Under the pieces are notes generated by a model. That model ran no database searches, was not told where the DNA came from, and worked only from the letters and a program-made list of their open reading frames with translations. Shown here one piece after another: positions 6,488 to 55,335 of a stretch of DNA of 64,000 nt. Position numbers and translations under genes: made by a program. Numbering within the stretch: position 1 is the stretch's first letter; the number at the start of each line of letters is the position of its first letter. Source of the stretch: Podarcis liolepis. Lineage: Eukaryota. The stretch lies in NCBI GenBank assembly GCA_965112155.1, contig OZ218106.1. One strand, given 5' to 3'.

Positions 6488-7318
6488 CAGTGGCATAGCG
6501 TGGGGGGTGCCAGGGGTGCCGGCCGCACCGGGCGCAACATCTGGGGGGGTGTGAGTCCAGAGGGAAGGGACAAGTTCCTTCCTCCGCCGGGCTCCCCGCC
6601 GCCACCGCCAGCCTTGCGCCCTAGCGCGCGCGCCCCGCCACCGCCGCTGCGGCTGCGCTCCACTCACTGCTCGCAGGAGGAGCAGCTGCTGCAGCAGCGC
6701 TGATGCCGCCACCGATGCCTGGCCGGGCACGGGCAGCCTCCGCACCCCGACGCCACCGCCATCCCCTTGGCCCAGCCACAGGCGGTGGCTGCTTCTGCCG
6801 ACTGGGAGGGAGGAGAGCTCCGAGGGGCCTCGCCGCGCCTAAACCCTCCGAGAGGAAGCCGGCAGGCGGGCGAGGGTCTCCCGGCAGAAGGGGGCGCCGC
6901 TGGCTCCGGCTCTCAGCGCAAGTCTCAGCCGCGGGGGGGGGGGGAGGACGGAGCATGGCTGGAAGCCCCCGGACCCGGCCGGGAGGAGGAGAGGCACTCG
7001 CCAAGCCCGGATCTGGAGCTCCACCTACAGCCCAAGGAGAGGAGGGGGCGGGGAGGCGCCTGAGGGGAGGTGGCTTCGGCTGCTTCAGCCCGCGGGGGCT
7101 CCACAAATAATAAATTTAATAAATTCCTGCTGAGCCTTTGGGGGGGGTCCTTGGCTCCTTCGCGCGCCCCCAGCCCCAGTGGCATAGCGTGGGGGGTGCA
7201 GGGGGGCGGGCGCATCATCTGGGGGGGCGCGCTCGCACTCGAGTGCTAAAATCCACGGGTATGGGGGCGCAAATTACTTGCCTTGCCCCGGGTGCTGACA
7301 ACCCACGCTACGCCACTG
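6488..7318. mobile_element. Non-autonomous hAT-superfamily DNA transposon with GC-rich internal cargo
   Basis: 17-bp TIRs CAGTGGCATAGCGTGGG / CCCACGCTACGCCACTG (1 mismatch); perfect 8-bp TSD GCCAGGCT at 6480-6487 and 7319-7326. Confidence 0.88.
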
Positions 7319-11895: not shown

Positions 11896-13012
11896 TTGTG
11901 GTGGTTTAGTCGTTTAGTCGTGTCCGACTCTTTGTGACCCCATGGACCAGAGCACGCCAGGCACTCCTGTCTTCCACTGCCTCCCGCAGTTTGGTCAGAT
12001 TCATGTTTGTAGCTTCGAGAACACTGTCCAACCATCTTGTCCTCTGTCATCCCCTTCTTCTTGTGCCCTCAATCTTTCCCAACATCAGGGTCTTTTCCAG
12101 GGAGTCTTCTCTTCTCATGAGGTGGCCAAAGTATTGGAGCCTCAGCTTCACGATCTGTACTTCCAGTGAGCACTCAGGGCTGATTTCCTTCAGAATGGAT
12201 ACATTTGATCTTCTTGCAGTCCATGGGACTCTCAAGAGTCTCCTCCAGCACCATAATTCAAAAGCATCAATTCTTCGGCGATCAGCCTTCTTTATGGTCC
12301 AGCTCTCACTTCCATACATCACTACTGGGAAAACCATGGCTTCAACTATACGGACCTTTGTTGGCAAGGTGATGTCTCTGCTTTTTAAGACATTGTCTAA
12401 GTTTGCCATTGCCTTTCTCCCAAGGAGCAGGCGTCTTTTAATTTCGTGACTGCTGTCACCGTCTGCAGTGATCATGGAGCCCAAGAAGGTAAAATCTCTC
12501 ACTGCCTCCATTTCTTCCCCTTCTATTTGCCAGGAGGTGATGGGCCCAGTGGCCATGATCTTCGTTTTTTTGATGTTGAGCTTCAGACCATATTTTGCGC
12601 TCTCCTCTCTCACCCTCATTAAAAGATTATTTAATTCCTCCTCACTTTCTGCCTTCAAGGTTGTGTCATCTGCATATCTGAGGTTGTTGATATTTCTTCC
12701 AGCAATCTTAATTCCGGTTTGGGATTCATCCAGCCCAGCCTTTCGCATGATGAATTCTGCATATAAGTTAAATAAGCAGGGAGACAATATACAGCCTTGC
12801 CGTACTCCTTTCCCAATTTTGAACCAATCAGTTGTTCCATATCCAGTTCTAACTGTAGCTTCTTGTCCCACATAGAGATTTCTCAGGAGACAGATGAGGT
12901 GATCAGGCACTCTCATTTCTTTAAGAACTTGCCATAGTTTGCTGTGGTCGACACAGTCAAAGGCTTTTGCATAGTCAATGAAGCAGAAGTAGATGTCTTT
13001 CTGGAACTCTCT
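11896..13012 (-). mobile_element. BovB (RTE-clade) LINE, 5'-truncated; RT C-terminal half (open frame 12047-12916)
   Basis: Translation GVRQGCILSPCLFNLY, NLRYADDTTL, GLKLNIKKTKIM, YGSESWTIKKADRRRIDAFELWCWRRLL, QYFGHLMRR matches BovB RT; 3' end GAGTCGGACACGACTAAACGACTAAAC. Confidence 0.96.
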
Positions 13013-13484
13013 CCAATTCCTGCAATGCAGTAATCTCAGCTAAAGCATCCATGACAGATGGACACCCAACTTCTGCTTAAAAGCCTCCAACAAAGGAGAG
13101 TCTGTTCCACTGTCGAACAGCTCTTACTGTCAGAAAGGTCTTCCTGATGTTTAGTTGGAATCTCCTTTTTTGTAACTTGAAGCCATTGGTTTGAGTCCTA
13201 CCCTCCAGAGCAGGAGAAAACAAGTTTGTTCCCTCTTCCATGTGACAGCCCTTGAGATATTTGAAGATGGCTATCATATCTCCTCTCAGTCTCCTCTTTT
13301 TCACGCTAAACATACCCAGCTCCTTCAAATGTTCCTCATCAGATTTGGCTTCTAGGCCCTTGATCATCTTGGTTGCCCTCCTCTGCACACATTCTAGCTT
13401 GTCAATATCCTTCTTAGATTGTGTTACCCAGAACTGGATGCAGCATTCCAGGTGCGGTCTGACCAAGGCAGAATAGAGTGGTAC
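13013..13484 (-). mobile_element. CR1 LINE 3' fragment (extreme tail displaced to 11863-11895 by the BovB insertion)
   Basis: ORF 13077-13466 [12 protein letters not shown]...[21 protein letters not shown]...[16 protein letters not shown] is CR1 ORF2 C-terminus. Confidence 0.93.
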
Positions 13485-16244: not shown

Positions 16245-17140
16245 CCATATTGTCTCCCTGCTTATTTAACTTATATGCAGAATTCATCATGCGGAAGGCT
16301 GGGCTGGATGAATCCCAAGCCGGAATTAAGATTGCTGGAAGAAATATCAACAACCTCAGATATGCAGATGACACAACATTGATGGCAGAAAGTGAGGAGG
16401 AATTAAAGAACCTTTTAATGAGGGTGAAAGATGAGATCACAAACTATGGTTTGAAGCTCAACATAAAAAACCCCGAAGATCATGGCCACTGATCCCATCA
16501 CCTCCTGGCAAATAGAAGGGGAAGAAATGGAGGCAGTGAGAGATTTTACTTTCTTGGGCTCCATGATCACTGCAGATGGTGACAGCAGCCATGAAATTAA
16601 AAGACGCCTGCTTCTTGGGAGAAAAGCAATGACAAACCTCGACAGCATCTTAAAAAGCAGAGACATCACCTTGCCAACAAAGGTCCGTATAGTTAAAGCT
16701 ATGGTTTTCCCAGTAGTGATGTATGGAAGTGAGAGCTGGACCATAAAGAAGGCTGATCGCCGAAGAATTGATGCTTTTGAATTATGGTGTTGGAGGAGAC
16801 TCTTGAGAGTCCCATAGACTGCAAGAAGATCAAACGTATCCATTCTGAAGGAAATCAGCCCTGAGTGCTCACTGGAAGGACAGATCCTGAAGCTGAGACT
16901 CCAATACTTTGGCTACCTCAAGAGAAAAGAAGATTCCCTGGAAAAGACCCTGATGTTGGGAAAGATGGAGGGCACAAGGAGAAGGGGACGCCAGAGGAAG
17001 AGATGGTTGGACAGTGTTCTCGAAGCTACCAGCATGAGTTTGACCAAACTGCGGGAGGCAGTGGAAGACAGGAGTGCCTGGTGTGCTGTGGTCCATGGGG
17101 TCACAAAGAGTCGGACACAATTAAACGACTAAACAACAAC
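16245..17140 (+). mobile_element. BovB LINE, 5'-truncated, frameshifted
   Basis: SPCLFNLYAEFIMRKAG...YADD; frameshift near 16470, premature TAG near 16815; (CAA)n tail at ~17131-17140. Confidence 0.96.
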
Positions 17141-19550
17141 ACTCATATCTATTTGGTGGATTTGGACATTTGCTTACAATACTCAGTGCATTTACTTAAG
17201 AGCAAACTCTATAGAAATTAACAATACTCTAAGGAAAATGCTTTTAGTACTGGGTTGCTCATAAACTAACTCTACACAAGTGCAAATGAATTCTCAAGGC
17301 ATTGTTGTTCACAGTCCAGTATCTTCCACTAGAAGTTTCCCAAGGTTTATTATACTCTTAGAAAATGTTTACTGCCTTTTAAATTTAAAATTATCGTACC
17401 AATTATCCAAGCTTTGTAATGCTGTGCTGAATGGAAACTCTGAACTGAGACCTGTTTAGAGTACATATATAATTAAAATGAATTAAAATGTGATTAGATG
17501 GGATATTAAGTCTTGATAGTAGGTTTATAATTTTCTGAGAAGGGCAATAAAGACAATTGGATCACAGAGATGTTCACACAACTTGAAGCTTAGTGTACTC
17601 TGATATTTATTAGCCAAAGAATATGGGTTTTACTACATGATATAAATGTAAAGCATATAAACAAAGCATGTGGCCTTGTATAAACATATAACTAGTTCAT
17701 ATAAATGTATGCATTCATTGTGTCTGAGATCCTATTATGCTAGTGTAGCCTAATTGAAAATACTAAGATTACTCCCGAGTAATGGATTTTAGGATTACAA
17801 TATGGCAATCAAGTTAAACATGGAATACTTTGATGTAAGTAGATGAAATCAAGTGGGCAATGGGACTTAGACCACATCTTCAAGATACCTTTAAAGCACT
17901 ATGATACCACTTTAAGAAGTGATTTGCCCCAAAGAATCCTAGAAACTATAGTTTGTACAGGGTGATAAGAGTTGTTAGGAGACTTTTGCAGGGCTACAGT
18001 TCCCAGAACAGTTTAACAATCAATCCTTCTTCCCAGGAAAGCCATCAGTTTTGCATACCACCAAAAGCCACCATTGCAGATTGCTGTTTCTGGCCATTTC
18101 CATTCATGGTGAATGGAATCACAGGGATGATTCACCAATTCCAGGCAGCCGTCACAGGCGAAAGAACAAAATTGGTGTATCCGATGTATGAATTTGCTCC
18201 CTGATAATGAGGCCTCGATACTAGAAGCTTCTGCAAGTACAACTTTTGTAGACATGAAAGCAGAATAACCTTAGTTTTCCTTAAGTTACACTTGGGCTAT
18301 CAACCACAATCTGTGAAAGAGGTAATGTAGGGAAAAATGTAATAACAGTGTATGAGCTCTCTTCTCGGTTTCACTGCCTAACCATGCACCAGTGGTATCA
18401 GAGACTAGTTTATCACACAGTGTATGTTAAATGATGTTCCAGTTGATGCAACCCCCTCATGCTGTGAATACATTAAAATGAAAGCAAGAGCTACGCTTAG
18501 GGAAGGGTGAAGAACAGCATTTCCCCTCCCCAATAAACCCCCCCTCCAAGGTTTCCGTCAGAATGTAGTGAAATTGATTCAGATGCATTTTTTGCTTTCA
18601 CATCAGAAAATATTGAAATATGCTCCCCGGACAAATAGCTGCCACTTTTAAAGTCTACTGTGGCTTTTCAAGTTTGATGTGGAATCCATCAGCCTGAAAA
18701 TGGGAGTGAGTAGCCATTTGTGGGGAAGGAGGAGGGAAGGAGGAAGGAGGCAGCAGCGGAAGAATCATAAGAAAAAACAGAACCTCAATGATACCATGCA
18801 TGACTAACAGAGCTTTCTCATTCATGAAGAAACTGGAATTTAAATTTCAGATCAGGAGTGATCTTTACTCCAAACCTTTTTGTAAGGAAGAGAGAGAAAG
18901 TCAACTCTGCATTTCCATGGAGATAGTTTGTGAAGCATAACGCAAACTATTGTTATGTTCGTTTCACTTCTCCAAGTGGTGAGAAGTTCAGTGTTGATCC
19001 AGATTTGGTTTCCTTTGGAATGAGATCACTGGGCACTTTTGTAATTTTTGTGGGTATTTACAACTATGTATAGGTTGATCACTGCTGGAGGCCCAAATTT
19101 CAGCTCTGTCTTTCTCTGCTTGCCTCTAGCTCAGAAGTACAGCTTGTCTTTTGCAGGGCTGCGATATTTCAAAAAGTGAAAACCCAAAGTTGTTGAGGGG
19201 AAAAAAAATGAAGGTTTTAACCTATCTTTTAGGAACAGCGCCAAAATATTGACACTTCCAATATGGGTTGACACTTGGGTTTCCATGGACATTTTAGCCT
19301 CTTTTCGAATATTCCGCCCGGACACCATTTTCAGCGAATGAATCCCGGCTATGTCTCAGACATAAGGCAGCCCTATCTTTCATTTCCTTCACCTACATTA
19401 GTTGATTCTAGGCTGGGAGGTGGCCATGTCTACCCCCAGCTCTGATTGGGCTTTCCTATTCAGAATATCACCAAAATAGTCCTGTAACAAAAAGCTGTTG
19501 TCTGGCAATGTAATTCCCATGGCAATATATCAGCTGTAGTTTACCTAATA

Positions 19551-37954: not shown

Positions 37955-38310
37955 TGGACTGGGTATGTTTAACCTGGAGATGAAAGTGGTCTTTAAATAT
38001 CTAAAAGACTATCATGCCAAAGATGGAGCAGGCTTGTTGCCTGTTGTTCTAGTGCCCAACTAGAATCAATGGTGGATAATGGCAGGGAAGCAGACTGTAG
38101 TTAAATGTTAGGAAAGACTAGCTAATGGTAAGAGCTGTTCAACAGTGAAATAGACTCCTGAGGTGGCAAACTCTCTTTCTCTGGGGATGTTTAAGCAAAG
38201 ACTAATTCATCATTGGTTGCAGACACTGTAGTTACACCCTTGTTACAGATCATGCATTGACAGAGATTTGGAGTAGATGACCTTCCAGGTCCTTCCAGAT
38301 TCTATGTTCT
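37955..38310 (+). mobile_element. Old CR1 3' fragment (upstream piece at ~37215-37320)
   Basis: GGGTATGTTTAACCTGGAGA...TTTAAATATCTAAAAG...GTAAGAGCTGTTCAACAGTG...TAGATGACCTTCCAGGTCCTTCCA...TTCTATG. Confidence 0.72.
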
Positions 38311-38600
38311 ACAACTCATTCAAATACAGATTGCAACCATAAAATAGAAAAATCCTAAGATACAATCAAACAACTTCAAAAGGCAGTAGGAATGCGAATA
38401 CCTCAGTTCTGAAAGTTTTTAGGCAGCTGTGGTTTAATGTAGCTCCATTCAGGGACGTGCCAGACTGAAATGTTAATGAGAATATTTGTAGTCTATGATG
38501 GAAGAAGTTGCATTGCGGTTCGAGGACCCGACCCCCGTGTGGTGAAATAAAGACACAAGGACACGTGATATATGGTTAATGGGCAAGAAAAGGCCACAAC

Positions 38601-38606
38601 TTTATT
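38601..38606 (-). terminator. Polyadenylation signal AATAAA of the element
   Basis: CCAATAAAGTTGTGGCC followed ~45 nt later by GT/T-rich GTGTCCTTGTGTCTTTATTT; a second AATAAA at 38658-38663 lies inside the structured domain. Confidence 0.6.
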
Positions 38607-38911
38607 GGTTACAGCAATGAAAAGGTATTGGCTTAGGCATTGGATCGAAGCAAGTGGTTTATTCACCAGTAGGTGGAGCCTGTCGATGCTAATCCGACTC
38701 TAGGCTCACCCCTGTTGTCACCGAGGGTCGTGCCAAGGCCTCCCGCCAAGCAGGCATCGGACGGAATACACGACCCCCAGATTCCTTTAACGGAATACCC
38801 CTAAAACATTGAAGGCATAGGCGATGGCCAAACCTAGCACTTCGACACACCACAACACATTATTCCAATGCCTAACCGCCACCCGAGCCAAAAGGCTCGC
38901 CGCCAATACCC

Positions 38912-39484
38912 TCACTGCTGCAACCAATCCCAGATGCTTTTGCTGACACTAGCTAGCCAAATGTCGTTCCCCGAGTCCGATAAGTGAACGCCATCATTCC
39001 GGTATAGAGCTTGGTCGTTAATACGGATACGATCATGCCGGATGACACGGCCAAACATAAAGCGCACCCAACGGGCTACCGCCCGATTTACGAGTTTCCT
39101 GGTTCTTTCAATGGCCAAACAACTTTGCGCACCGCGCCACTCAATTCTTTTCAGGAAGGAGGACCAGAAAACCGTCGTTCTGGGGCACAAGGCTGCCAAT
39201 GCATTCAAGTCTCTTTTTATGCTCCCCAACAAGTCTGCACTCTTTCTGCTGGTTAGGTCATTCTCTCCCAACTGTATCACAATAGCGTCGGGAGGGCCAA
39301 AGTTGGCTACTTTCTCCCGCAGCAAAGGCATCAGCTCTTCCCATCGCATGCCTCTTCTCGCAAACCAGGAAACTCGGACATCATTTGGGAGGCCAAGATT
39401 AGGTGCCAGGCCGCATCTTGCTGCACGTACGTGGGCCCAATGAACAATACTGTGGCCACAGATCCACACATTTCTTCTGAGCAA
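38912..39484 (-). CDS. SGNH/GDSL hydrolase (esterase-like) ORF of the YR retrotransposon
   Basis: Block I VWICGHSIV (Ser), block II RRGMRW (Gly), block III QLGENDL (Asn), block V NDGVHLS (Asp/His); 190 open codons; starts at TTG just after a splice-acceptor consensus. Confidence 0.92.
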   Translation of the reverse strand: MLRRNVWICGHSIVHWAHVRAARCGLAPNLGLPNDVRVSWFARRGMRWEELMPLLREKVANFGPPDAIVIQLGENDLTSRKSADLLGSIKRDLNALAALCPRTTVFWSSFLKRIEWRGAQSCLAIERTRKLVNRAVARWVRFMFGRVIRHDRIRINDQALYRNDGVHLSDSGNDIWLASVSKSIWDWLQQ

Positions 39485-39486
39485 AG

Positions 39487-39523
39487 CTAGGGGTAAAGAC
39501 AGAGAAGACGGCAGGTAAGTGAG
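39487..39523 (-). promoter_or_regulatory. Predicted 3' splice acceptor of the hydrolase ORF
   Basis: Minus strand: CTCACTTAC (branch-like) CTGC CGTCTTCTCTGTCTTTACCCCTAG|CT TTG CTC; phase-1 entry. Confidence 0.7.
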
Positions 39524-39543
39524 GCCCAGCGACTGGTCGCGTA

Positions 39544-40344
39544 CTAGCGAATGTAAGACTTATAAGCATTAGATCTCCACCGGCCCATCTCTTTGATCCT
39601 ATCCGCTGGTAGACCTAAGTGCGCAGCCGTGGTTGCGGCACCAATCCTAAAAGAGTGCGCAGCGTACTCCTGGGCAGATAGTCCACAGGCCTCGATCGCC
39701 TTGCGCAGTACTCTGGTGAATTGGTATCTCAACATGGGCGACCCGTCCTCATGAATCAAAAACGGACCTGGGCCAGGTGGCCTAAGGTCGAGATACCGCC
39801 TAGTGTCCTTTACCGGACATGGGCCCTGCTGTGTTGACGCTGAGAGTTTGATCAGGACACCCTTGCCAGCCTGATCGGTCTTGGACTGTCGTATGAGCAC
39901 TGAAACGGAAGAGCTAGACAGCTGCACATCCTTGCAAAGGAGTCCGTGGTTTGAACCCCGTGCACTAACTTCAAACACAACCTCCCCAACCCTCAGTGCG
40001 CCAAAAAAGGCGATAGCATATGCTGCAGAAAAAAGGCGTGCTTCGAATCTGGACCAGCAAATCAACCTGAGTTTTTTGCGAATTTGAGACAACAACCCGT
40101 AAGAAATCGGCTTACGGCCTTCGTCCCTGGGAGGCTGTAACCTGCTCCAACCCTCGATTGCCCTACGTATCATGAAGTCGCTACACGGGTCATGAGCAAA
40201 TGTAGCTTTTGAAAAGAAGCTGATAGCTGCTACATGAATCTTTAAAGTTTTTGGGGCACGTCCCAGGTCGTCGAGATGTGAAAGATACTGCAAAACGTCA
40301 TTAGGAAAGATAACTTGGTTTTGGGTTGTACCAATGTACCTCAA
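39544..40344 (-). CDS. Tyrosine recombinase (DIRS/Ngaro integrase), N-terminally truncated, no start ATG
   Basis: Catalytic motifs FFGALRVGE (R), RQSKTDQ (K), CPV, HSFRIGAATTA (HxxR), MGRWRSNAYKSYIR (W,Y); 266 open codons; track start codon is TTG. Confidence 0.93.
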   Translation of the reverse strand: MRYIGTTQNQVIFPNDVLQYLSHLDDLGRAPKTLKIHVAAISFFSKATFAHDPCSDFMIRRAIEGWSRLQPPRDEGRKPISYGLLSQIRKKLRLICWSRFEARLFSAAYAIAFFGALRVGEVVFEVSARGSNHGLLCKDVQLSSSSVSVLIRQSKTDQAGKGVLIKLSASTQQGPCPVKDTRRYLDLRPPGPGPFLIHEDGSPMLRYQFTRVLRKAIEACGLSAQEYAAHSFRIGAATTAAHLGLPADRIKEMGRWRSNAYKSYIR

Positions 40345-42059
40345 GACTAAATGAAAAGAAGTATCATGGAAGTCATAGCAGTTTCTAAATATGCAATTCT
40401 GAATCTAAATGCTGAGATCAGATGGTTGCATGTGATCTGCTTGCCTGCCTGTATCTGAGTTGTGATGAGACTACAGAATATGTGCATATAGCCCTCAAGC
40501 CTCAAGGAGATACTGTCAGCAATAGAACACTGGCAAACAATGCAAATTCAGTGAGTAAGGTGAGAGGTCAAGTTGGTTGTGGGGGGAAAACCCAACCATA
40601 CAGGATTTGGGAACAGGAGGAATGTGTGCTGTGCAGGTAGACAAAAAGAAAGTTAAGCAGATATTTTAAGTCCTGCCTATCTAGTTTAAGCATCTATTTC
40701 ACCAGAGGTGGGGTTTTTTTGGAAGGCATTTACTGTATTTCCAACATAGTGTGTATTGCCTGTGTTTTAAATATTCTGGAGTCTTTCATGTGGTGGTGGT
40801 AAAGTCTCCCCATCAAATTTATTAAAAAAATTAAATTCCATACCTTGCCAGCAATTATTTTTACAGGACGCAAGACTCATTTTAGAGACCTGTTATAAAC
40901 CAATCTGAAAATATGGCTTTATAATGGAAAGCAAGAGAAACCTTTAATTGGTGCAGTGTTAGTGAGCACTGTTATGACACTGAGCCCATCCATAGGGTAA
41001 GACTTTCCTGTACAGTTCTGCTGACTATACACCTGCTCGGTCAAATGCACTCTGAACAAAATGTCAAAGAATTTCTTTTGACTTAACGATGTTTAATCTT
41101 TTTTTTTTAATCTGTGTGGCCTCCGTATATGATTCTGGTACATGAGTTATACATATAAGTGGAGAAATGATAAAAGATGAGCAAAAACCACTGGCTAGGA
41201 AGTATTTTCTGCTGATGTATTAATTCATTTCATCTCATACGTGGTATCACCATCAAGGCTAACTAGATTTTATGAGTGGAGTCACTGAAGTGAAAATCAA
41301 GCCAATGAATCGTTTAATATGAACTAATGAAGACCAGATATAAAAGGCTTTAGTAACTGGTTTGGTACTTTAATTGTCAGGCTGATGGAAATTCAGAGCC
41401 TTCGTAAAGTAAAGCAGTGGGACTACAGAGGAGAAAGTGGAATCGCTTCACGATAATTGGTTTTAATTAAATAGCCTTATAAACAGCTCTGGTTTATGTA
41501 ATGTAAGTGCAAAAGGAGGAGTTTTTCAAGGTAAAAATAAATTGCATTTGCAAAAGGTTATAAGCAGGGCAGAGACCACCGTCATGTTTGCATTTGAAAA
41601 CATTTCTCTTTTGCTTATCACAACTAAGAACCTAATTAATGTTGCCTGGCTTCTATGAAATAAAGTAATCCTGCGGGGGTCTGAATAAAAGGATAAATAC
41701 ACCATGCTGAACAGCCCATTCTCCAGTGCAGAATTCAAAATTGTTGACTGCTGAATGTCCCCCCTCCTCGCCATCTTTAGAGCCTTCATATATTTTGTTG
41801 AATTCAAGGGATTTCTGCCCAAGTTGAGAAATGAAAACCTTCTGTCTCCTTACTCTATTAATCTTTCATGGTCCTGTGTCCAATTACCCACACATGCATC
41901 CCACTGTGAAATAATGGGGTTGTTTCATGTCCAACAAATGCCAGGATTGCTTCCTTGGAGCCTTTGAATATTAGGAGCACCACTACCTGTTGCAGATGAT
42001 CCCCCAAAGTGTTACTTCAAGTCCATTTTTTAGGTGTCTGGGTAATGTCTGTTTGGATT

Positions 42060-51859: not shown

Positions 51860-52081
51860 GAGAGCCAGAATAGTGTAGTGGTTAAGAGTGGTGGACTCGT
51901 AATCTGGTGAACCGGGTTCGCTTCCCTGCTCCTCCACATGCAGCTGCTGGGTGACCTTGGGCTAGTCACACTTCTTTGAAGTCTCTCAGCCTCACTCGCC
52001 TCACAGAGTGTTTGTGATGGGGGAGGAAGGGAAAGGAGATTGTTAGCCGCTTTGAGACTCCTTAAGGGGAGTGAAAGGTGG
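51860..52081 (+). mobile_element. Young Squam3-like SINE running into an assembly gap
   Basis: Reverse complement of 19610-19850; its expected (TTC)n tail falls in the N-run. Confidence 0.82.
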
Positions 52082-52210
52082 NNNNNNNNNNNNNNNNNNN
52101 NNNNNNNNNNNNNNNNNNNNNNNNNNNNNNNNNNNNNNNNNNNNNNNNNNNNNNNNNNNNNNNNNNNNNNNNNNNNNNNNNNNNNNNNNNNNNNNNNNNN
52201 NNNNNNNNNN
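52082..52210. other. Assembly gap
   Basis: N run. Confidence 0.99.
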
Positions 52211-53019
52211 TGATATGGAGAATGGTCCCTACAAAGGAGGAGTAATGGCTAGACTAGCAGTACAAGTGGAGACAGCAGTTCTTCACTAAAACCACAAACT
52301 GATTTGAGGGGTGGGTAAGAGAAAGGAGGGGAAAAGTTAGCTTGTGTGCATTGTTCCAAGAGGGAGGGAGTGTGCATACATTTTGGCAAAGCTTAGAATG
52401 TTCATTTTAAAAGGAACTAGTTCTAGTTCAAGTTGCCCATGTCCCAAAAGCTACTAATTCCAGTTCATGCCGGTCCTTTTACTAAATAAATTAGTTTGGT
52501 TCATGTTGCATTCACAGTTCAGTTCCAGTTCATCTAAATTGATCTAAGTTGACACACACACACACACACACACACACCCCATGCCCAACATTCTGAATAT
52601 GACAAGTTGCTGTGCTGAAGTATAAAATAGATTTAAGAAGACTGAGAAAACTGTGTGTGTGTGTGTCAACATTATGAACCAGGAGAAAACTTTTGGAAAC
52701 TCTTTTCTCCACTCAAATCCTCACACAGGAAGTTCATAGTTACTGAGCTGATTCCGAATTAAGCTGGAGGGAGTTTACCAATCCTTATTTTTGTGTCAGC
52801 AGAAATTGACATCTCTGACATTTAAGAGAACTACTTTTAAATTAAAAAAACCTTTAAGGAATTCTCTTATACCCCCAGCCAACCTATAAGGCATTTTTAA
52901 CGAGGTTTTTGCTGGATTCTAAATATATCTGGGTGAGAATTTTCGAGTGAATAATGATCCTTAAGAAATCAGTGAGACAAGTTATTAATTCAAGTGCTAA
53001 CAGTCCTATTACAAGGTAA

Positions 53020-53280
53020 NNNNNNNNNNNNNNNNNNNNNNNNNNNNNNNNNNNNNNNNNNNNNNNNNNNNNNNNNNNNNNNNNNNNNNNNNNNNNNNNN
53101 NNNNNNNNNNNNNNNNNNNNNNNNNNNNNNNNNNNNNNNNNNNNNNNNNNNNNNNNNNNNNNNNNNNNNNNNNNNNNNNNNNNNNNNNNNNNNNNNNNNN
53201 NNNNNNNNNNNNNNNNNNNNNNNNNNNNNNNNNNNNNNNNNNNNNNNNNNNNNNNNNNNNNNNNNNNNNNNNNNNNNNNN
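53020..53280. other. Assembly gap
   Basis: N run. Confidence 0.99.
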
Positions 53281-53702
53281 ATGCATGCTGATAGAGGACT
53301 TTTGTGTGCCTGTTTTGGGGTGTATGTGTTTTACCTATAATCAACACTACAACCACACATAACAGAGTGTCATTTAAGATAACCTGCTACCTTTATTTAA
53401 AATGATGATCCTTCATATGAGAATTTCACAGGTGTGGTGACAATAACAGACAACTCTTATTTAAAAGTATAACTTCTCATTAACACCATCATTCTGCAGT
53501 TCATTATGCTTCTTGGGGGGGGGGTTAAAAAAAGGTTTCTGGCAATAAGGACATATTAGACAAATTGTGACCTGAGAAAAAGACAAAGTAAAAAGCTTCA
53601 TTAAATTGCTATTGGAAGACATGAACAATCACCAGAAAAGAAGGGCTGGTGTGAAGGTGCTAATTTAAACAAAATGTACAAAGAAGAATAGTCATCACTT
53701 AC

Positions 53703-53857
53703 CCATTTTAAGGTAAGAAGCAGCAACACCTGCTCCCCCGGTAGGAGATTATTGAAGAAATTCAACCTGATTTATTTTCCTTGTAAAAGACCCCAGACTT
53801 GTCCATCTGAACTTTGCCAGGCTTAATCAACTCTAGAAGCACTTCTTTTCCATCAAC
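53703..53857 (-). other. Candidate exon (mostly untranslated, ATG at its 3' edge) of an unidentified minus-strand transcript
   Basis: Minus strand CCTTTCCTCCTTTTGACAAAG|GTTGATGG ... TTAAAATGG|GTAAGT; unique, non-repetitive sequence. No homology support available. Confidence 0.3.
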
Positions 53858-54282
53858 CTTTGTCAAAAGGAGGAAAGGTTATACCCATTTGAAGATTTCC
53901 CCATTTTAGCTTCATCTAATAAAGAGTGGCTTGGAACCCAAAACACAGACTCAAGATGAGAGCACACAGTAACTGAGGAACTGATTCTATATATTCTTCT
54001 CTCATAAAACACCCACACCCACCCCAACAACGAAGAACCAGATAGACACAAGATGACTGATGGGGCCCATCCATACCCCTAATGTACATGATCCAAACCT
54101 CTCAGACCTCATGTGTGGATCAGACATGAGTAATCCACTGACTTTCACATACTCAAAAAGTTCTGTCACGGTTCTGATCTCAAAAACAGTATCAAAATAT
54201 GTTTCAAAATATGTGTCTTGAGGAAAAAAATGTTTAGAAATATTAATTTTAAAACAAAATACATAGAAGTATGTATTTAGCA

Positions 54283-54521
54283 NNNNNNNNNNNNNNNNNN
54301 NNNNNNNNNNNNNNNNNNNNNNNNNNNNNNNNNNNNNNNNNNNNNNNNNNNNNNNNNNNNNNNNNNNNNNNNNNNNNNNNNNNNNNNNNNNNNNNNNNNN
54401 NNNNNNNNNNNNNNNNNNNNNNNNNNNNNNNNNNNNNNNNNNNNNNNNNNNNNNNNNNNNNNNNNNNNNNNNNNNNNNNNNNNNNNNNNNNNNNNNNNNN
54501 NNNNNNNNNNNNNNNNNNNNN
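54283..54521. other. Assembly gap
   Basis: N run. Confidence 0.99.
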
Positions 54522-55335
54522 GTACAACTGGGGCAGAAGAGACCTGTGGTCAAATGGTGCAGAAGATATTATAGAAATTGAAATAAATTGTAGAATTTCA
54601 GAGGCCATATGGTAGTAATAAGATATATATATACAATCCGGTTGACTACAGAATTCATTATGTAAAACAGCTGACTCTTAGAAAGATAAAAATATGTCTC
54701 TAGTGGTTACTACTGAGCTTAAAAAAACAATCTGGAATCTAAAGCTGCAAAAATAAAAATCAGGAGTATAGTCCCACCAGTCCATTTAAGTGTTTAGATC
54801 CACCTCACGGTATATTTATCTGCAGACTTCAGATTCACTATGGAAAGGTGTTGACTGGAGAAGTGGCTGCAGATATTTGGAGTGAGAGGACCAAATCACT
54901 TATGACAAAGAAAGTGCAGAGGGGGATGTGAAACCCATTAGCATCTTAGCCAAGTTGACGCTACATTTGTGTGTGTGTGTGTGTCTGAGTGTGCGTCTGA
55001 TTCTTCCTGAACTGTAACACGAGTCTCTTCATGTATTAAGATCTTCTTCAGGGGTCCTTCTTCCTTCTATCACAGGTAAAGTGAACTGGAGACAGGGCTT
55101 TCTCTGTGTGGACAGTCCAGCTTTGAAACTGTCTCCCCATAATAATAATAAAAAGATGGCACCAAGTTTTTTGTGCTTTGGGCACCTGGTGAAACCCCAT
55201 TTATTTCCACAGACCTTTTAGATCTGTGGTTTTTAATTGCATTCTATCTGGTCAAGCTGTTGCTGTTTAAATTAAGGGGAATGGCCATAGCTCAATGATA
55301 GAACATTCAAGCCCCCCAAAGAGACAAATGGCTCT

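Follow-up and report, generated by a model that had tools for sequence, protein, structure and literature searches.

Anatomy of the locus

This study concerns a 64,000-nucleotide (nt) stretch of DNA from the lizard Podarcis liolepis (contig OZ218106.1), the whole of which is called the window, and a retrotransposon remnant within it. On the minus strand, the remnant of a tyrosine recombinase (YR) open reading frame (ORF; ~40300-39544) is followed by an intact ORF for an SGNH esterase (39486-38912). The features of the locus are listed below.

39544-40300, minus strand: YR ORF, 5'-truncated (Phage_integrase E=2.6e-4, below the curated cut-off)
39487-39543, minus strand: spacer of 57 nt from the YR stop to the acceptor, the putative 3' end of an intron (sequence)
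39529-39540, no strand: interrupted 5-bp inverted repeat, chance-level and without an assigned role (shuffles and folding)
39515-39523, minus strand: branch-point-like CTCACTTAC, whose branch A would be at 39520 or 39516 (motif match only)
39490-39519, minus strand: polypyrimidine tract, 25/30 pyrimidines, the equal-highest 30-nt window of the element (AG ranking scan)
39487-39489, minus strand: likely 3' splice acceptor (TAG), entered in phase 1 (G|CT) at the first AG past the branch motif (position equal to the junctions in relatives)
38912-39486, minus strand: terminal exon of the SGNH esterase, 2 nt and 190 codons plus a stop (motifs, Lipase_GDSL_2, fold)
38510-38911, minus strand: 3' untranslated/terminal region, containing AATAAA at both 38663-38658 and 38606-38601 (lower limit placed by visual inspection)

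The YR homology begins at ~40300, with 77% identity to the YR part of a related protein, P0021. The YR motifs RVGE (39993), KTD (39882), HSFR (39657), and GRW (39585) are followed by the tail AYKSYIR and the TAG stop at 39546-39544. The closest protein match to the esterase is a Podarcis muralis model with 97% identity.

Both a YR ORF with catalytic motifs and an SGNH ORF behind it, the features of a Ngaro-like element, are found at the locus; the SGNH ORF is a feature of a vertebrate subset of such elements. The YR-then-SGNH layout is that described for Ngaro-like elements, with a hydrolase of unproven function (PMC9210276, PMC6681497, PMC7192593). The locus is a Ngaro-like YR retrotransposon as classed by its architecture alone, because the split direct repeats were not found: no direct repeat longer than 15 nt was detected in 38300-39000, in a copy whose 5' end is missing and whose 3' end is unmapped. 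Split direct repeats (A1...B1-A2-B2) are also missing from DIRS-54_XT (PMC9210276). Within the 64-kb window, neither gag nor reverse transcriptase (RT) of the element was found, so the locus is a 5'-truncated copy; the splice donor discussed below is lost too. Rfam gave no match in 38300-40500, and a crude exon scan around the copy yielded no recognisable host gene. Without a promoter and a donor, the copy is probably inert, and its expression would likely require splicing from a host donor.

The predicted esterase

The SGNH blocks I (Ser), II (Gly), III (Asn), and V (DxxH) are all present on the minus strand, as GHS with the block-I Ser codon (39457-39449), RRGMRW (GMRW at ~39349), GEND (39268-39257), and DGVH (38995-38984). 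The Pfam match to Lipase_GDSL_2 (E=1.7e-6) is below the cut-off. The AlphaFold model is a single soluble-type alpha/beta domain with a predicted local distance difference test (pLDDT) score of 87.7. Its top natural matches are SGNH enzymes with a template modelling (TM) score of ~0.7, and the ZfL2-1 esterase 4c1b is found at rank 10 (E 2.3e-7). Residues 1-24, which are encoded by the spacer, are disordered in the model (pLDDT<50), and the SGNH fold starts just past the G|CT codon. The SGNH motifs and the modelled fold are intact, and the product is a predicted esterase.

The likely splice acceptor and the spacer

A sequence-only reading of this DNA had proposed that the hydrolase ORF has no usable ATG and is entered through a strong splice acceptor at the end of a ~57-nt spacer. 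The first in-frame ATG is indeed at 39349, in GMRW, 3' of both the block-I Ser codon and the block-II Gly. The spacer measures 57 nt (39543-39487), and the branch-like motif, the pyrimidine tract, and the TAG|CT all lie where that reading had placed them. The acceptor AG is at 39488-39487, part of a TAG and not a CAG. The exon starts at 39486, and the entry G|CT (Ala) is in phase 1.

The site was scored by the U2-type 3' splice site consensus, and its features (YAG, pyrimidine tract, AG-free zone, and branch motif 18-44 nt upstream) are all found. Two yUnAy branch candidates are held by CTCACTTAC, with their A's 34 and 30 nt 5' of the exon on the minus strand. The tract before the acceptor has 17/20 and 25/30 pyrimidines, and the AG-free zone is 44 nt long. 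Among the 113 minus-strand AGs within the element, this acceptor ranks first. When all 8868 AGs of the window were filtered for YAG, >=17/20 pyrimidines, an AG-free zone of >=20 nt, and a branch motif, 13 passed, and 4 passed with an AG-free zone of >=44 nt; these cut-offs are the acceptor's own values, and the counts rank the site and are not a p-value.

A second AG at 39478 was rejected as the acceptor; it is behind the first AG and would require phase 2. Another AG lies upstream in the YR tail (39559-39560), without a preceding pyrimidine tract, and is the apparent acceptor of P0003, the 97% model. The esterase frame is open back to 39559 and has in-frame CTG, TTG, and GTG codons; an out-of-frame ATG is found at 39569. 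The small palindrome also claimed in the spacer did not hold up as a functional element. It is an interrupted 5-bp inverted repeat, GCGAC-CA-GTCGC (39540-39529), whose letters had been quoted from the plus strand, and such a repeat arises in 6.9% of 5000 spacer shuffles. The window contains 27 similar GC-rich repeats and the element 3, and the region around this one folds no better than shuffles (z=+1.14).

Gag-esterase junctions in gene models of relatives

The splice was tested via the annotated or predicted proteins of relatives; a profile search gave 2989 relatives, and the best 150 were used. Many lacertid models of ~413 amino acids (aa) consist of a basic Ser-rich N-terminus and an SGNH domain. 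When only the N-terminal 222 aa of one such fusion was used as the query, 26 proteins were found: 16 are of the Gag class, 'Gag' being used for ORF1 by convention, and 10, counting the query, are SGNH fusions. The 16 Gag-class proteins, of which two are truncated and three are intron-less Logan predictions, run on as ORF1/Gag towards a candidate Cys/His knuckle. Weak zf-CCCH matches were obtained in 14/16, and the Atlas look-alikes are unnamed eukaryotic clusters. The sister family is annotated with two protein classes, a full Gag of ~505-565 aa versus a GagN+SGNH protein of ~413 aa.

A junction Gly is present in 26/26 proteins, and the residue before it is S, T, or A in 26/26. In Gag, this Gly is followed by T (15) or M (1) and then by S (16/16). 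In the 10 fusions, the protein switches to SGNH at the acceptor position, and the Gly is 12 residues before the catalytic Ser, matching the position of the window's G|CT. The phase-1 fusion to an upstream gag-like exon that the sequence-only reading had anticipated thus appears in models of relatives. Matched Gag/fusion pairs are <=89% identical over the N-terminus (P0190/P0196 and P0181/P0180), with 89% identity up to the junction Gly in P0190/P0196. Six further fusions (P0013, P0045, P0047, P0202, P0203, and P0241) have G at the same place, and fusions with the junction Gly come from four lacertid species altogether.

Read-through models in the 90% clusters of fusions (P0204 with P0190; P0044 with P0241) have a pyrimidine-coded tract and S-G or P-G at the junction. 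P0204, for example, reads LFCLFIS-G-SAEVRIW, compared with SYT-G-STDVRIW in the fusion P0190. Eight of nine manually selected read-through N-termini, with the window's among them, have a codon-implied pyrimidine content of 0.66-0.83; the background has a mean of 0.48 and a 95th percentile of 0.60. The implied spacers in relatives are 24-78 nt long (36-63 nt for the five best placed), which is about the room needed for a branch point, a tract, and an AG. Isoform pairs of P. raffonei (Ser-12) and Bombina (Ser-11) with different upstream exons join SGNH at a C/G residue swap, and at a caecilian locus one donor has three continuations (Y/L/C). These swaps and continuations indicate a phase 1 junction.

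Within the window's clade, part of this Gag core is also found in P0006 (E 4e-5), and the Gag-like N-terminus of P0021 has T-G after its basic and acidic tract. Both favor, without showing, the same donor in this clade. A conserved upstream ATG, which would speak against entry by splicing, is not seen: at most 4 of 129 relatives have a Met at any position from -22 to -6. The absence of a conserved Met and the varying frame between YR and SGNH argue against a fixed start or frameshifting.

Two further observations were made on the Gag models. Five of the 16 (P0184, P0186, P0188, P0194, and P0201) have a partial tandem duplication; in four of these, the first copy breaks off at the putative donor and the sequence resumes at an Ala-Pro motif further upstream, a pattern that joining of the donor to an upstream AG could produce (by back- or trans-splicing or by microhomology). 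P0021 and P0050 join a Gag-like N-terminus to the YR start, hinting that the YR may also be reached by splicing and not by frameshifting; predictor patching could produce the same joins.

Proposed expression route

We consider it quite probable that intact Ngaro-like elements use the 3' splice site of the spacer to fuse the first half of the Gag-like ORF1 with the ATG-less esterase exon in phase 1. The full-length RNA would yield Gag and the enzymes, and a spliced RNA would join a donor in gag to the acceptor before SGNH. The donor would lie inside gag, at a putative xCA G|GT A(C/T)G T encoding the residues (S/T/A)-G-(T/M)-S. The T/M exchange in Gag points to ACG/ATG and hence to a G at donor position +5, as in the splice donor consensus. 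The predicted intron would remove the remaining gag, RT/RNase H (RH), and YR, and translation would start at the Gag ATG, giving a predicted GagN-esterase. The subfamily of the window would use the homologous donor.

The predicted fusion would retain the Gag N-terminal helices and the Arg/Lys-rich tract and would drop the Gag core and the Cys/His knuckle. The retained part has the Arg/Lys tract and two predicted helices (residues 35-69), where an otherwise poor model is most confident. By analogy with ZfL2-1 ORF1p, such a fusion might tether a lipid-binding esterase to the RNA-protein particle of the element for membrane targeting, which is a tentative suggestion. The mechanism is proposed for intact elements, and not for the window's copy, which is without gag, RT, and donor.

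Several points weigh against this route. Every junction comes from an automated gene model, and such models can spread from one another through homology. Among the intron-less Logan predictions, no Gag-SGNH junction was found (three read-through and three Gag proteins among the Logan matches). The 30 proteins looked up are from NCBI/UniRef, and their sole Logan cluster member starts downstream of block I. The seven other models of the window's clade include no clean GagN+SGNH model. Five of the seven switch at Ser-12, four from YR-frame donors (two of them at the last Arg codon of YR) and the fifth from an exon without an assigned identity. Of the remaining two, P0003, the 97% relative, takes a more upstream AG, and the other is partial. 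The documented fusion family is a sister group, and its SGNH shares 45-50% identity with that of the window (31% in a single frameshifted model). The donor bases were back-inferred from amino acids in a Ser-rich tract, the ORF1 model (pLDDT 37) is too poor to confirm a capsid-like fold, and the Logan relative P0018 has a Met just past the junction where the window has TTG.

Alternative explanations

The acceptor could be real while its main donor lies in the YR, either at the last Arg codon, with a 62-nt intron removing the YR stop, or at a DQG donor, and the product would be a YR-esterase fusion. P0021 and P0038 of the window's clade join at the last YR codon, and P0005 and P0006 join at DQG, all in phase 1. 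The window itself has C|GCTAGT at 39548, but this is a weak GC donor. The implied last-Arg introns of 41-68 nt in the five best placed relatives (P0204, P0044, P0048, P0018, and P0008; 29-83 nt over eight) are mostly under the usual vertebrate minimum of ~65-70 nt. Furthermore, the YR donors vary by model, as expected from patched degenerate copies, but 16 models share a single position for the gag donor. A main donor in the YR is considered improbable.

The esterase could also be translated alone from an unspliced or internally started RNA, through a near-cognate codon (TTG at 39484 or an upstream CTG), an ATG of the YR tail, or reinitiation after the YR stop. The in-frame CTG/TTG/GTG codons of the window, the Met one residue past the junction in P0018, a Met <=20 residues from the Ser in 15 of 129 relatives, and eight read-through models with an in-frame ATG inside the YR tail are in its favor. 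When 18 models with short N-termini were tested, eight were found to start at off-frame ATGs of the YR tail (+2 in five, +1 in three) and ten were without signal; the start of P0204 matches the off-frame YR tail at 13/13 positions. Since the ATGs are in +1 or +2, the YR-SGNH frame is not conserved. This frame differs even between close subfamilies, the +2 frame of the window has two stops before 39559, and the read-through models are found only because their ATG happens to be in frame. The pyrimidine tract and the Gag fusions would be left unexplained, and separate translation is judged quite improbable.

That the junctions are annotation artefacts, in which predictors link any upstream ATG ORF to an ATG-less domain via a chance AG, is very unlikely. 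Several models are plainly patched (P0003, P0019, P0032, and P0034), RefSeq models can copy one another, and the junctions are known from models and not from reads. Nevertheless, a single fixed donor and acceptor are found over four species and more than one pipeline, and the tract signature is conserved. One-codon isoform pairs and several isoforms per locus are also annotated, which normally require transcript support.

A programmed -1 frameshift at the YR end has hardly any likelihood: relative to YR, the esterase lies in the -1 frame, which overlaps the last 5 YR codons in the window, and ORFs overlap in Xenopus Ngaro-like families (PMC9210276), but no X XXY YYZ heptamer is present in the last 67 nt of YR, no stable downstream structure is found, the YR-SGNH frame is not conserved, and the spacer-encoded peptide is predicted to be disordered and is not conserved.

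Host gene models ending in SGNH exons

The same type of exon terminates models of host genes. An 18-member cluster, of which 15 are listed, consists of 'TSG101 isoform X1' proteins of 408-409 aa (P0129 and P0214-P0227) from iguanians, snakes, geckos, an anguid, an amphisbaenian, and a skink. In these models, the UEV and Pro-rich region are joined in phase 1 to an SGNH domain that replaces the Vps23 core. Their SGNH parts are 78-100% identical to each other and ~33% identical to the window's, and the catalytic His is changed to Leu in 15/15 listed. A single codon distinguishes X1 from X2 in these pairs, the pattern of a tandem acceptor. The squamate-wide distribution suggests that TSG101-SGNH is likely an old domestication.

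Mostly large proteins with a terminal SGNH domain (P0104, P0106, P0123, P0126, P0136, P0141, P0146, P0150, P0163, and P0170) form another clade (tree support 100/100), with cold-shock domains in 4 of the 5 scanned. Three that were looked up are from teleosts (arowana, pupfish, and goby), and this combination is likely a second domestication. Lacertid ZNF638/SRRM2-like, gecko ZNF318-like, and newt RNF31 isoform X3 models (P0022-P0029 and P0033) also end in SGNH exons. The lacertid ZNF638/SRRM2-like models stand at three places in the tree, which suggests repeated capture. In geckos, P0020 and P0035 have several degenerate SGNH domains in tandem (matching over 4 and 6 stretches), along with multiple isoforms. 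An esterase exon that is ready for splicing would likely explain its capture by host genes such as TSG101.

A wider proposal, in which our confidence falls somewhat short of even, is that Ngaro-like elements of vertebrates run retrovirus-style splicing. A mid-gag donor would give a GagN-esterase converging on the ORF1p-esterase of long interspersed nuclear elements (LINEs), and possibly a GagN-YR. The self-contained phase-1 exon would then be a plug-in domain repeatedly domesticated by hosts, including the squamate-wide TSG101 isoform, in which a catalytically dead transposon esterase would stand in place of the half that binds the ESCRT-I core, as a candidate decoy against viral or retroelement budding.

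Other features of the window

A GC-rich insert at 6488-7318 has terminal inverted repeats of 17-18 bp and an 8-bp target duplication, GCCAGGCT; we take it to be a hAT-like non-autonomous DNA transposon. Inverted LINE fragments at 11897-13039 and 16247-17141 are 93% complementary, and the first has an RT ORF (RVT_1 E=6.7e-27). The region 52000-55000 is AT-rich (GC 27-34%) with many short inverted repeats.

Comparison with known systems

For about two decades, the hydrolase of Ngaro elements has been catalogued as an additional ORF with an unproven function. Splicing of gag to the esterase exon would likely explain the expression route of this long-unexplained gene. If true, the protein to clone and assay would be defined, with the esterase as the C-terminal half of a spliced Gag fusion; two unrelated retroelement classes would have converged on helices, a basic tract, and SGNH; and a simple cause would exist for the repeated host capture (TSG101 in squamates and a cold-shock-domain gene in teleosts). 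In the literature searched, which lies outside the primary Ngaro papers and Repbase, no account of a spliced Ngaro hydrolase was found, nor was one of a TSG101-SGNH isoform. Within it, frameshifting to reach YR is the sole expression route suggested for any downstream ORF of Ngaro. That proposal, for RT-to-YR, comes from a review quoted in the available part of a 2026 newt paper, where the hydrolase is unmentioned (PMC13003380). The excerpt of PMC9004415 has nothing on the Ngaro hydrolase.

The Xenopus elements DIRS-53_XT and DIRS-54_XT resemble the window's element, with the SGNH ORF directly after YR in overlapping frames (PMC9210276). The hydrolase is the fourth ORF of the Xenopus Ngaro-like elements in that paper, whereas here it is proposed as the second exon of ORF1; 'splic' and 'intron' have 0 occurrences in its main text (PMC9210276).

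The LINE ORF1p proteins of ZfL2-1, CR1, and RTEX share the SGNH fold (PMC3905857; 4c1b). Their order of coiled coil or helices, Arg-rich motif, and C-terminal SGNH is the order predicted here. The ZfL2-1 ORF1p esterase is active and binds acidic phospholipids (PMC3905857). In ZfL2-1, the fusion is a continuous ORF1 of a non-LTR (long terminal repeat) element, and its lipid binding and activity are demonstrated (PMC3905857); here, the fusion is predicted to arise by alternative splicing beside a full Gag.

The sequence-only reading had likened the hydrolase to retroviral env. The likeness stands for a spliced subgenomic RNA and fails for the rest, the enzyme being the C-terminal half of a predicted Gag fusion. 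An env gene has its own start codon, a signal peptide, and a membrane anchor. At this locus, an env-type own start after a spliced leader is not found: no in-frame ATG precedes the catalytic Ser, and the 129 relatives show no conserved Met. The predicted product is an in-frame Gag fusion. In logic, the GagN-esterase fusion is presumably closer to foamy virus Bet. The ORF3s of LTR elements are typically expressed from spliced messages, and retroviral env and ORF3, including the GDSL ORF3 of bdelloid Vesta, are likewise the 3'-most accessory ORF (PMC5408684).

A precedent for the host capture is provided by LAP2alpha and ZNF451, in which a DIRS-gag ORF was captured as an alternative exon, with a splice acceptor and a poly(A) signal inferred by the authors (PMC4495291). 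As in the SGNH capture, an ORF of a YR retrotransposon became an alternative exon of a host gene (PMC4495291). The ORF captured there, in mammals, is the gag of DIRS1-like elements. The captures described here involve the esterase exon (TSG101 in squamates, a cold-shock-domain gene in teleosts, and ZNF638-like genes in lacertids), and the acceptor is visible in the element.
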